A DNA stretch of 64,000 nucleotides, from positions 96,001-160,000 of the IMG/VR virus record IMGVR_UViG_3300028591_000090; one strand, 5' to 3'. Below are positions 22,465-26,127 of the stretch, piece after piece. Position 1 is the first letter of the stretch, and each line of letters begins with the position of its first letter. Made by a program: the position numbers and the translations under genes. The notes under the pieces were generated by a model. That model searched no databases. It saw nothing but the letters and a program-made list of their open reading frames with translations, and was not told the DNA's origin. Source of the DNA: a virus. Taxonomy: Duplodnaviria; Caudoviricetes.

Positions 22465-24432
22465 TTACTGCATATCCATTACCTCATTCAAATCAAATTT
22501 TGCCCCAGTACCGTTTCGTTCTTGATTTGCCTCAATTACATCGTGTTGAACAATTCTTCTATATTCAGTAAATGCACTATCTCTTTCTAATTTATCCCAA
22601 TAATCCCAACCAATTTCTTTGTATTGTGGCGAACCGATAAAAACATTTGCATGAATACAACTCAAAGCAATATCATCGTGACCTGTTTGACAACGATAAA
22701 TTGTACGACCTTCATTAGAACCAAAGTTAGATAATTCTGCAAAGGTAATCTCACTCGTTGTTATTACCTTATCAATAGAAACATTTTGTTGGAAACTTTC
22801 ACAATATTTAACCTTCATTTTATTTGAAGATAAATTTGTTCCTGGTTCATAATATAAATCATCTTCTTTTTCCTTATTAAATATTATCATACCAGTCCAA
22901 TAATTTGCATTCCTCAATAATTTATCCCTTACAACAATACCTTGATTATTCAACTCAATACCAATCCTTACGTTTTCGTAATTAAACAAATCAAAAACAA
23001 TAGTATTAACGACATCGCTAAAAGTTTCTATGTTTATCGAATTACACCTAAACATACCAATCTGAATAAGAGAAAAGACATCTATCTCTTCCTCTATATT
23101 GTTCTTATTCATTAACACTCTATTAAGAGGCATTGGTGCAACCTTAAATATATTACATACATGATAATCTTTTCCAACACCTTTCGAGGTATCTATTCCA
23201 AAAACATAATAATTATCGTCTTTCTTTAAATCATCTATATCAGAAGTAAAATTATGTTTCAAAAATATTGGATGCCACGTTAAAAATTGTGAAAAATCTG
23301 TTTTTACTTTATGAATTTCTCCTTTTTTGAAATATGTCTTATCTATATTCATACAAGGTATCGCCCTTGAAACAAATTTTGTCTTTATATTATACAATTT
23401 CTTTATATCAGAAGAGTTTAATAACAAATTGTCACCCTTAAAAAACTGTAAACCATATTCTTGATTAAAGTCTTCTACAGAACCAAGGTCTGCAATTGTC
23501 TTCTGCTTCCACTCTTCATCTCTACCTTTTACTTGCCACCAATCAACTCTCAAAGGATAGAAATTAGAATCTCCCTCTCTTTCAACAGCATCTATTGCAC
23601 TATTCCATAAGGTATTAAATTTATTCATACCATTTGGTGTTGAAGTAATGATAATTCTACTACCTGGTGTACCAGAAATTGTAGGATATGTTGAACGCCA
23701 AAAGTCATCAATAAAGTTTGCAGAAATATGTGCAAACTCATCCATATATAACAAGTCAATACTCAAACCGATAGCAGATTTCTTTGTTGTTGAACGACCA
23801 ATTATACGACAACCATTATCCAATTTCATTGATTGTACGTTGTTAATCAATATACCCGGCTTCATAAAGAACGGTAAATTGTTCATAATCTGCTTTACCT
23901 TATCAATAATTTCTTTTGTCGTATCCAAAATATCACCCAACATCAATACGTTCTTTTCCTTATGGAACAATACAAACCATAAAATAAAGATTGCAGAAGT
24001 TGTTGTATTATGTGATAAAACATCCCCTGTATAATAAGAATGCTCACCACTATCAACACTTATATCATACATATAAAACTTATATGGATGTCTTACAACC
24101 TCAAGAACAACTTTTGGCTTATCCTTACCATATAAAACTTGACCATATACTAAATCTTTAGCATATACCGTCCTTAAATTTATATCAAAAAATAAATGAT
24201 TGTCTGCACACTCTATCGACGTTCCATCTGAAAATTTTACCTCATATACTTGATATGGCTTCGTTATATACAAATCTGTTGCTTTATGATAACCATCTCG
24301 TGATAAAACCTCTACATCTTCAAGACTTTCATGATACACAAACTTATTATCCATAATAACAGCATTACGAAACATTAAATATTCCGTAAACTGTATCAAA
24401 TATCCTATTATGGTCTTTAATATTTGCTTCAT
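22465..24432 (-). CDS. terL: Terminase large subunit, C-terminal fragment preceded by a 142-aa C-intein
   Basis: After SHN: TTTSAIFILWF, Walker B LLYMDEFAH, ITSTPNG, FNQEY, nuclease motifs GIDTSKG and HDDIAL (T4 gp17-like). Confidence 0.95.
   Translation of the reverse strand: MKQILKTIIGYLIQFTEYLMFRNAVIMDNKFVYHESLEDVEVLSRDGYHKATDLYITKPYQVYEVKFSDGTSIECADNHLFFDINLRTVYAKDLVYGQVLYGKDKPKVVLEVVRHPYKFYMYDISVDSGEHSYYTGDVLSHNTTTSAIFILWFVLFHKEKNVLMLGDILDTTKEIIDKVKQIMNNLPFFMKPGILINNVQSMKLDNGCRIIGRSTTKKSAIGLSIDLLYMDEFAHISANFIDDFWRSTYPTISGTPGSRIIITSTPNGMNKFNTLWNSAIDAVEREGDSNFYPLRVDWWQVKGRDEEWKQKTIADLGSVEDFNQEYGLQFFKGDNLLLNSSDIKKLYNIKTKFVSRAIPCMNIDKTYFKKGEIHKVKTDFSQFLTWHPIFLKHNFTSDIDDLKKDDNYYVFGIDTSKGVGKDYHVCNIFKVAPMPLNRVLMNKNNIEEEIDVFSLIQIGMFRCNSINIETFSDVVNTIVFDLFNYENVRIGIELNNQGIVVRDKLLRNANYWTGMIIFNKEKEDDLYYEPGTNLSSNKMKVKYCESFQQNVSIDKVITTSEITFAELSNFGSNEGRTIYRCQTGHDDIALSCIHANVFIGSPQYKEIGWDYWDKLERDSAFTEYRRIVQHDVIEANQERNGTGAKFDLNEVMDMQ
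24007..24432 (-). other. Split intein C-fragment (residues 1-142)
   Basis: Block B IECADNH, block F MYDISV, block G YYTGDVLSHN followed by Thr+1. Confidence 0.92.
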
Positions 24433-25571
24433 TTCTCTAAAAACTCTTTACACTCTGCTATAACAGATTCTTTGTTTTTTTTATAATCATTTTCCCATAC
24501 AACCAATACATCAAAACCTAATGACTCTGCATATTGTTTCTTTTTCTTGTCGTATGCCCACCTTTCTTCTGCTTTCATTTTATTATTTGAAAAAGAATCT
24601 TTATCTTTAAAAGTTTCTGGATTATAATGCCAAAAATCTCCATTAAATTCTATTATCTTATTTTTATAACAAAAATCATAAGCATAACATCTACTTTCTA
24701 TATTATCAAAGACAAAAAATTGTCTATTACCAACACAAGAAAAACAATTTTTTGATTCTATTTTTGTTTCATTTAATAAATTTGATATAAACTCTTTTTC
24801 TAAATTAGAAGAAAAACCATCTTGTTTTTTGGGTATTTTTGAGAATAATCCTTGTTTATACATTCCTTCTACTTTTTCAGACCATTTTCTTTGCCTTTCA
24901 TAAAAACGTCTTTCTCCTTCTTCTTTACCATATTTTTCTATACATTTATCTAATGTAAATGTTCTTTGTCTTTCTGATAATGCTTCTTTTGCGTCTTCTT
25001 CTGACATTCCCTGATTTAAATAATATTCTATTTGTGTTGGACCAATCCTATCTTTTAATGATTCTTTTGCAAATTCATGAACTTTATTCTCTGCTTCCTC
25101 TTCGCTATATCCCCTTTTTATATAAAAATATTTAGAAAAAGGTGAATTTTCTTTCAATTCTTGCTCCGTATGTTTTGATTTGTGCATTGGATTCTTTTCT
25201 CCTTTAAACTTTTCTGAAAACATTTTCTTATACTTTTCATTTTTCATATGTTTTCCAGAATTTTTACTTGTATTTTTATAATCGTTTTCACAATACAAAG
25301 GAGCCTCTGGAAATTCTTTCTTATACTCATCAAGAGTTCTGTCTGGGTGCATATTTCTCATCCAAACACCATAAATTCTTGGAGTAACTAATCCATTCCA
25401 TCTATCAACAACATAATCAACCCCTTCTACACCTTTTCTTAACTCTTCTTGTTTCTGCTTAAAAAGATATTCCTCTCTACAAGACGGTTTACAATATAGT
25501 TGAGTTTTACATTTTTGTTCAAATTCTTTTCCGCAATTTGGACAAATAATTATTTTATGTTCTGCCTTCAT
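24429..25571 (-). mobile_element. Free-standing homing endonuclease, Vsr-like (EDxHD-type) with Zn-finger and NUMOD3-like DNA-binding modules
   Basis: N-terminal CPNC...YCKPSC, KGEKNPM, C-terminal YDFCYKNKIIEFNGDFWH...DKKKKQYAESLGFDVLVVWEND; sits between the two terminase halves. Confidence 0.85.
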
Positions 25572-25572
25572 A

Positions 25573-26127
25573 TTAACTTAATTTTTCATATATTCTATAA
25601 AGAAAATTACGTATCCTTACAAGTATATTTATTTTCAATTTTGTTGGCATCTCGCCAAGTTTTATTTTCCTATTATTTACTTGAATATCAGTATTATAAG
25701 GGCAACACTTCCCAATTTGACGGCTTGCGAGTACAATACACTGGGGATGTTTTATAAACCCTTCCAAAAGTCCTTGTTGATAATCTCTTAATTTAATACT
25801 TTCATATCCAGTTCCAGTTTTTAATTTACAGAATTTATCAGCAAAATATATCGGGTCTGCAGCACATTTACGTAATTCGTCCATTTCTTCCCTTGTATAT
25901 TCAAAGGTAATTCTTGGTTTTCTAAATGTAATATCATTTTGTAGAAATGGGGAGTTTTTAATTCTGCTTAATTCAATAAAACCATCTTGATATTCTTTAA
26001 TAACTTGATTAACTTTTTCTGTGGACCAAGCAATATCTTCGTGTCCTTGATTATTTTTATCAAAGCCATCTAATTTAGTAACGTCGATATTAGTAAATGT
26101 TCCACCTTTTTTGAAATAGTTAATCAA
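25573..26127 (-). CDS. terL: Terminase large subunit, N-terminal fragment (140 aa) followed by a 44-aa N-intein
   Basis: KCAADPIYFA, LRDYQ, partial Walker A ASRQIGK then intein block A CCPYNTDI. Confidence 0.93.
   Translation of the reverse strand: MINYFKKGGTFTNIDVTKLDGFDKNNQGHEDIAWSTEKVNQVIKEYQDGFIELSRIKNSPFLQNDITFRKPRITFEYTREEMDELRKCAADPIYFADKFCKLKTGTGYESIKLRDYQQGLLEGFIKHPQCIVLASRQIGKCCPYNTDIQVNNRKIKLGEMPTKLKINILVRIRNFLYRIYEKLS
25576..25707 (-). other. Split intein N-fragment (residues 141-184)
   Basis: Cys1 immediately after GK; CCPYNTDIQVNNRKIKLGEM resembles block A of atypically split TerL inteins. Confidence 0.88.

Follow-up and report, generated by a model that had tools for sequence, protein, structure and literature searches.

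A fractured large-terminase gene with an atypically split intein and a Vsr-like endonuclease gene between its halves in a large phage of the sheep gut

Fractured genes, in which two host open reading frames (ORFs) on the same strand carry a split-intein half at each break and enclose a free-standing Vsr-like endonuclease gene, were described by Dassa, London, Stoddard, Schueler-Furman and Pietrokovski in 2009 from fragmentary metagenome reads, among them the gp17-like terminase locus from Lake Gatun (GOS-TerL), and were proposed as the missing link between contiguous and split inteins (PMC2677866). The present study concerns a locus with these sequence-level features in a 64,000-nucleotide stretch of phage DNA, hereafter the window, which spans positions 96,001 to 160,000 of the IMG/VR record IMGVR_UViG_3300028591_000090, from a large phage of the sheep gut. 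In this locus, the gene encoding the large terminase (TerL) is interrupted by an atypically split intein, whose N- and C-terminal parts (IntN and IntC) flank an endonuclease gene. The record comprises 183.6 kb with an estimated completeness of ~69%, and the relatives discussed below are phages of 462-735 kb, so the label "jumbo" is plausible for the host phage.

Several described systems share part of this anatomy. AceL-TerL is divided into fragments of 25 and 104 aa and GOS-TerL into fragments of 37 and 115 aa; GOS-TerL is of the Ser1/Cys+1 type, and AceL, GOS and the engineered consensus intein Cat (30/104 aa; PDB 6DSL) all use Cys+1 (PMC11766414). The "classic" P-loop inteins TerL1-a of mycobacteriophages separate the invariant Walker A Lys from the nucleophilic Thr (Kelley et al. 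2016, PMC5050341), while the prototype of the EDxHD homing family, I-Bth0305I, is the product of a group I intron that interrupts recA (Taylor et al. 2011, PMC3239194; PDB 3R3P).

The ORF list and the raw sequence give three consecutive minus-strand ORFs at 25573-26127 (184 aa), 24429-25571 (380 aa) and 22465-24432 (655 aa). The N-fragment stop occupies 25573-25575 and the endonuclease ATG begins at 25571, leaving a 1-nt gap, and the endonuclease TGA (24429-24431) overlaps the C-fragment ATG (24430-24432) in the motif ATGA. The N-fragment reads ...ASRQIGK and then CCPYNTDI..., with 44 aa to its stop, whereas the C-fragment opens with 142 aa of intein ending ...VLSHN, followed by TTTSAIF. All these coordinates, lengths and overlaps, first given in a sequence-only reading of the window, were exact on re-reading, and the same reading was right that fractured genes with split inteins and Vsr-like endonucleases were already known (PMC2677866). 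The features are as follows, all on the minus strand.

25708-26127: N-extein of the large terminase, residues 1-140, ending ...ASRQIGK, the first half of Walker A (gp17 alignment to the Walker A Lys; phrog_5989 positions 97-169).
25576-25707: IntN, 44 aa, with Cys1, block A, a short helix alpha1 and helix A; stop at 25573-25575 (homologous N-fragments P0018-P0028, all with GK/C).
25576-25629: helix A, the C-terminal tail of IntN, NILVRIRNFLYRIYEKLS (family-conserved tail motif; corresponds to H40-56 of the folded contiguous homolog).
24423-25578: 1156-nt cassette, replaced by 4 nt in a sibling phage (the 11,320-nt contig X4 joins 24422 to 25579).
24429-25571: free-standing gene for a predicted EDxHD/Vsr-like homing endonuclease, 380 aa, with an N-terminal Cys4 zinc finger, a Ros/MucR-like module and helical repeats (HMMER relatives, Pfam, AlphaFold2 (AF2)).
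24432-24719: predicted C-terminal nuclease domain of the endonuclease, about residues 285-380, with D299, E308, D312, H315 and D341 (top Foldseek matches; residue conservation).
24007-24432: IntC, 142 aa, with helix B, block B ADNH, block F Asp123 and block G His141-Asn142 (phmmer matches to the gp41-1 intein and CatC; invariant residues).
24364-24429: helix B, the N-terminal head of IntC, KQILKTIIGYLIQFTEYLMFRN (identity 0.54; corresponds to H61-75 of the folded homolog).
22465-24006: C-extein of the large terminase, residues 143-655, from Thr+1 in TTTSAIF, with the rest of the ATPase domain and the nuclease domain (gp17, Pfam Terminase_6N, L006).

Compared with the described systems, the locus resembles GOS-TerL in its phage origin and in its layout: the coding sequence of a large terminase is divided over two ORFs of one strand, each broken end bears half of a split intein, and a Vsr-like endonuclease gene stands free in the gap. 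It differs in being of the Cys1/Thr+1 type at the Walker A GK/T junction and in having fragments of 44 and 142 aa. In contrast to the fractured genes of Dassa et al., its junctions are tightly coupled and without an intergenic hairpin region, and a near-identical, endonuclease-less contiguous allele is on record. As in AceL-TerL and Cat, the split lies between blocks A and B and IntN holds block A alone; however, IntN is ~14-19 residues longer and IntC ~38 residues longer than in those two, about 23 of the additional IntC residues being helix B and the additional IntN residues including helix A. The AceL, GOS and Cat fragments are too short for this helix pair, and the window IntC aligns to CatC only from residue 33. 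The TerL1-a inteins occupy the same insertion site, but they are contiguous, some with nested endonuclease domains, whereas the window intein is split and its free-standing endonuclease gene lies at a non-canonical intein position. The window endonuclease resembles I-Bth0305I in its C-terminal Vsr-like nuclease domain with a conserved Glu/Asp/His/Asp set, and may resemble it in having a modular N-terminal DNA-binding region; its gene, unlike that of I-Bth0305I, lies inside an intein coding region. The layout is of a known kind, set apart from AceL-TerL and GOS-TerL by Thr+1 at the P-loop, by longer fragments and by the helix pair.

The two outer ORFs encode parts of one large terminase, whose joined exteins amount to 140 + 513 = 653 aa. 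In phmmer searches against solved structures, residues 68-141 of the N-fragment were aligned to T4 gp17, the match ending one residue past the Walker A Lys, and residues 142-305 of the C-fragment were aligned to gp17 from the same Lys onward (E 3e-30). Since the two alignments meet at this Lys, K140, which corresponds to it, and T143, which corresponds to the residue right after it, are neighbours in gp17. Likewise, the terminase profile phrog_5989 matches the N-fragment with its positions 97-169 and the C-fragment with its positions 170-331, so that the junction falls between positions 169 and 170, and Pfam Terminase_6N is matched on the C-extein. In IMG/VR, the closest relative is L006, with 45% identity over residues 143-654 of the C-fragment; it has a single contiguous 655-aa TerL that reads ASRQIGKTVTT, a homologous upstream gene and a syntenic arrangement, and it is an intein-less empty site. 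The extein junction is thus gapless against gp17, phrog_5989 and L006, and Walker A is restored at GK/T, in line with the earlier claim that joining the exteins yields this motif in a 653-aa protein. In the 183.6-kb record, Terminase_6N was found once and the intein profile matched once, both at this locus, with no second TerL and no second intein. Accordingly, judged by its sequence, the locus is a fractured gene and the only large-terminase gene detected in the phage.

The intein interrupts the P-loop between the Walker A Lys and Thr, and the residues expected of its chemistry can be assigned on both sides of the break: Cys1 (Cys141, right after ...RQIGK), block B His79, block F Asp123, the terminal His141-Asn142 and Thr+1 (Thr143). 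Across six diverged C-fragments (P0001-P0013; alignment A1), A76, D77, H79, D123, H131, S140, H141, N142 and T143 are invariant, the first three also in alignment A4, and RQIGK/C is kept in 10 N-fragments. In phmmer searches, IntC residues 33-142 matched residues 10-112 of CatC (6dsl_B; E 2.3e-6) and IntC residues 42-142 matched the gp41-1 intein (E 2.7e-6). By its Cys1, block F Asp, His-Asn end, Thr+1 and HINT homology, the element is predicted to be a class 1 intein. Because IntN carries block A alone while block B lies at IntC residues 76-79, the split is of the atypical N-proximal type; the short block A-only IntN and the Cys1/Thr+1 assignment proposed from the sequence alone have thus held up against the blocks, the invariant residues and the CatC match. 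Additionally, a contiguous homolog with a 185-aa intein (L045), modelled with AF2 from alignment A7, from which the N-fragments had been left out, folds as a HINT domain (pLDDT 84.9, pTM 0.81), with TMt values of 0.90 to the gp41-1 intein and 0.81 to Ssp DnaB among solved inteins.

Two observations concern the ends of the intein. In the X2 strain, the N-fragment P0018 (184 aa, 95% identical overall), probably derived from a 1571-nt X2 contig, which equals in length the contig recorded for this protein, has CLIFNELAESNNKKIR as its first ~16 intein residues, against CCPYNTDIQVNNRKIK in the window (25660-25707); small indels at 25678-25692 cancel one another, which leaves a locally reframed patch at block A with Cys1 present in both. 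At the opposite end, some relatives depart from the His-Asn of the window, with Ser-Gln in L001 (3369-3809; LR756500.1) and Leu-Asn in L002 (3501-3938; LR756501.1), L055 and L057, and splicing may differ in these phages.

A feature shared by the whole family is found precisely at the break. An amphipathic tail, here helix A, ends every IntN, and another amphipathic segment, here helix B, opens every IntC; in contiguous members the two helix segments are linked by 4-5 residues, such as KRKN or NGNNN, and the break always falls between them. In the L045 model, the two (H40-56 and H61-75) form a helical hairpin, flanked by the first intein helix on one side and the beta-rich HINT core on the other, and solved mini-inteins align around this hairpin, with targets of 127-141 residues over 187-201 alignment columns. 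Both helices are very hydrophobic. In a MAFFT alignment of n=10 well-aligned members, from which L045 and the P0014-type inteins were left out as register-shifted in the helix region, the mean pairwise identity was 0.54 for helix B, 0.55 for block F/G, 0.42 for helix A and 0.42 for the whole intein. These features suggest that the helix pair may help the fragments find each other and that the DNA encoding it could be the homing site of the endonuclease.

The middle ORF belongs to a large family, with 5799 cluster representatives at E<=1e-3 and 260 at E<=1e-30 in an exhaustive HMMER search. In an alignment of 25 sequences, D299, E308, G311 and H315 are invariant, D312 is kept in 21/25 and D341 in 22/25, and W359 and E360 are nearly invariant; the window motif EFNGDFWH agrees with the Vsr-like signature of Dassa et al. 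(PMC2677866). Pfam matches among the relatives were REase_MTES_1575 (13/25), DUF559 (7/25), ROS_MUCR (5/25) and NUMOD3 (1/25). The AF2 model (pLDDT 89.7) gave, at Foldseek ranks 1-3 and 6, the catalytic domain of I-Bth0305I (3r3p_B and 3r3p_A) and Vsr (1vsr and 1cw0) with probabilities of 0.92-1.00, that of 3r3p_B being 1.00 with a TMt of 0.66; the Foldseek E-values are weak because the 380-aa query is multi-domain and only its last ~100 residues align. At the sequence level, phmmer does not detect the resemblance to the solved domain: in the PDB, 3r3p was reached neither by the single sequence nor by the A3 profile, and Vsr only at E ~0.6. On the strength of the fold ranks and motifs, the protein is a predicted nuclease of the EDxHD/Vsr-like homing family, as had been proposed for the free-standing gene between the intein halves.

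Other aspects of this gene were also recorded. Its N-terminal Cys4 finger consists of C10, C13, C27 and C31. The Ros/MucR-type zinc ligands (Cys, Cys, His) are found in 14/25 relatives, where the window has Asp56, Asn59 and Trp70 (25362-25406); among the 25 aligned sequences, the window included, position 56 is Asp in 11, position 59 is Asn in 9 and position 70 is Trp in 7, and since these residues recur, the module looks like a zinc-less variant rather than a decayed one. The GC profile showed no clear compositional island at the cassette. In Caulobacter phage Cr30, a 340-aa homolog annotated as "hypothetical protein" (L003 3486-4508, KF301602.1; 33% identity, 94% coverage) stands free between the small and large terminase genes, terS and terL, the latter without an intein, which suggests a terminase-associated lineage of EDxHD homing endonucleases.

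The locus was compared with contigs of the source run, of an independent DNA study (X2), of an RNA-library run (X3) and of another study (X4). In X4, one 11,320-nt contig covers 22300-24422 and 25579-26300 with only AGAA between them, 1156 nt being skipped. With window letters on either side, this junction reads in frame as ...RIYEKL-FL-LKTIIGY... and, free of stops, encodes a TerL of 836 aa in which the 183-aa intein is contiguous; the indels listed within IntN cancel one another, and the one other listed indel lies outside the ORF. The skipped piece consists of the last IntN codon and the stop, the endonuclease ORF, and the first 3 codons and first base of codon 4 of IntC, and because it has exactly these boundaries, the cassette supplies both the stop of the upstream half and the start of the downstream half. 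The endonuclease-bearing and endonuclease-less alleles are a few percent apart at the DNA level and come from different gut samples; the break may be recent, as the sibling phage has an unbroken version. The X4 junction 24-mer had no exact match in viral or metagenome contig sets, and a scan of metagenome contigs for close relatives of IntC returned one distant fragment only.

Searches of IMG/VR and of published GenBank huge phages with hidden Markov models built from the N-fragment, endonuclease and C-fragment of the window showed that related phages hold this terminase in a series of states.

Contiguous intein: L051-54 (840-aa TerL, 195-aa intein) and L045/46 (940-aa TerL, 185-aa intein).
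N-fragment, endonuclease and C-fragment tightly packed: the window, L048, L050 and L001 (LR756500.1, 462 kb); L060, grouped with L001, is likewise fractured with a homologous endonuclease.
N-fragment, endonuclease, 1.1-1.6 kb of extra ORFs, C-fragment: L047 and L055/56.
N- and C-fragments adjacent, without endonuclease: L049, with ~150 nt between them.
N- and C-fragments 1.5 kb apart, without endonuclease: L059, with an antisense ORF between them.
Dispersed: LR756501.1 (L002 and L038; 735 kb), with the N-fragment at 623.9-624.3 kb and the C-fragment at 609.4-611.5 kb, ~12 kb apart.
Dispersed: L057/L058, with no N-fragment within 3.5 kb upstream.

The halves in LR756501.1, with unrelated genes between them, resemble the dispersed split intein of cyanobacterial DnaE, whereas those of the window are adjacent and split at the atypical N-proximal site rather than in the canonical endonuclease-insertion loop. 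A literature search found no paper on this huge-phage TerL intein family. The extra ORFs that follow the endonuclease or separate the halves (L055 2348-3493, L059 1956-3488 on the minus strand, L047 1901-3498) encode DUF7487 proteins in L055 and L059, antisense in the latter, and in L047 two paralogous ORFs of unknown function. Right downstream of the fractured TerL of LR756500.1 lies a 270-aa ORF (L001 5347-6159) that matches TerL ATPase-domain profiles and has an altered P-loop, SSRQMGIS, followed by a 615-aa ORF (L001 6253-8100) with the Vsr-like motif EVDGVYWH; the same genome has four matches to the window endonuclease. In LR756501.1, a radical SAM gene (L002 2496-3449) is found immediately upstream of the isolated C-fragment.

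Taken as a whole, the locus is best explained by a class-1 intein that separates the Walker A Lys from the Thr, the classic P-loop position, and into which an EDxHD/Vsr-like endonuclease gene would have landed between two helices, breaking it in two. The three ORFs, with their 1-nt gap and ATGA overlap, are translationally coupled; after translation, IntN (block A and helix A) would associate with IntC (helix B and blocks B, F and G), Cys1 would start an N-S acyl shift, Thr+1 would take over the N-extein and Asn142 would cyclise. This would yield a TerL of 653 aa whose P-loop, ASRQIGK-TTT, is whole again, as the ATP-driven packaging of DNA requires. During co-infection, the endonuclease probably cuts endonuclease-less intein alleles where their DNA encodes the junction of helices A and B, and its gene is thereby copied in. 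On the sum of this evidence, it is very probable that trans-splicing of the two halves produces a functional TerL.

It could be argued that the TerL halves work without ligation, the intein fragments, and the helix pair above all, doing no more than holding them together non-covalently as a dimerisation module. The good conservation and strong hydrophobicity of helices A and B would suit such a role, the Ser-Gln and Leu-Asn intein ends of L001, L002, L055 and L057 could mean weakened splicing in those relatives, and a precedent is offered by the fragmented NrdA of an Aeromonas phage, reportedly assembled via remnants of a mobile element (PMC3045599). However, the window intein keeps every class-1 catalytic residue, invariant in diverged relatives, and a break within the P-loop would put the Walker A Lys and Thr on separate chains with ~186 intein residues between them, which makes assembly without ligation unlikely.

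A dead or dying terminase gene, struck recently by the endonuclease in a defective or satellite-dependent phage and replaced in packaging by a terminase encoded elsewhere, is very unlikely. The record is an incomplete 183.6-kb fragment and the existence of the cassette-less sibling allele means that the insertion may be recent; on the other hand, the record holds no other TerL, and the fractured layout occurs with intact ORFs in many diverged phages, which fits long-term function. The same layout is also kept in X2, whose contigs span both gene junctions and whose differences from the window are mostly synonymous: among the listed differences in the C-fragment (n=25), 20 are synonymous and 5 nonsynonymous, the synonymous share being 12/13 in the extein and 8/12 in the intein, figures that are only indicative.

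An intron of group I or II that carries the endonuclease and is removed from the RNA, or an assembly artefact within one contiguous intein, is hardly credible, even though EDxHD endonucleases also occur in group I introns (PMC2677866, PMC3239194), given that Rfam returned no intron at E<=1 (its sole match being a chance miRNA outside the locus), that the intein blocks flank the break in frame, that the three ORFs, separated by a single nt at one junction and overlapping by 4 nt at the other, leave no room for a ribozyme core, and that two DNA samples agree on both junctions. In fact, the source-run contig covers the whole stretch with zero differences and X2 covers both junctions, so the stops are not assembly errors, while each of the three ORFs is matched by X3 contigs at 100% identity, and the contig at 25438-25701 runs uninterrupted from the N-fragment across its stop into the endonuclease gene, no RNA joint being found among the X3 contigs at the locus. 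Both an RNA splice and an assembly error, named in the sequence-only reading as outcomes that would overturn it, are therefore disfavoured. That reading did not extend to the contiguous allele lacking the endonuclease, to the series of states in the family or to the helices on either side of the break.

Some points weigh against trans-splicing of an essential terminase as set out here. Block B is ADNH, with Ala where most inteins have Thr (TxxH), although its His is present and invariant. The HINT fold was modelled for a contiguous homolog that is only ~30% identical to the window IntC. Because the record is ~69% complete, a second terminase gene may lie outside it, and the X3 RNA-library contigs may stem from contaminating DNA. 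Finally, the X4 allele is known from the contig-mapping table, not from its letters, and it may represent either the state before insertion or a precise loss of the endonuclease.

A broader reading, in which the helix pair and the family states are considered jointly, is put forward tentatively, as a possibility that falls somewhat short of an even chance. In it, the helix pair would be a built-in docking module that makes the TerL intein tolerant of breakage, and the EDxHD endonuclease would home into the hairpin-coding DNA of the intein, not into the terminase gene. Populations would then switch between a 183-aa cis-splicing form and a 44 + 142-aa trans-splicing form, and the family would drift towards endonuclease-less, dispersed split inteins in the largest known phages.

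As a Cys1/Thr+1 atypically split intein with a 44-aa IntN, the element is also a possible protein-ligation tool. When genomes of large phages are annotated, an apparently truncated or duplicated terminase gene may in reality encode one half of a protein that is completed by splicing. Its value lies mainly in the helix pair and in a matched natural pair of alleles of one terminase intein, one carrying the endonuclease cassette and the other lacking it, which makes the gene-breaking model directly testable as regards cis- versus trans-splicing, the endonuclease target and the part of the helix pair in association. All later stages are represented in the surrounding family, the furthest being the 735-kb phage whose halves lie 12 kb apart.

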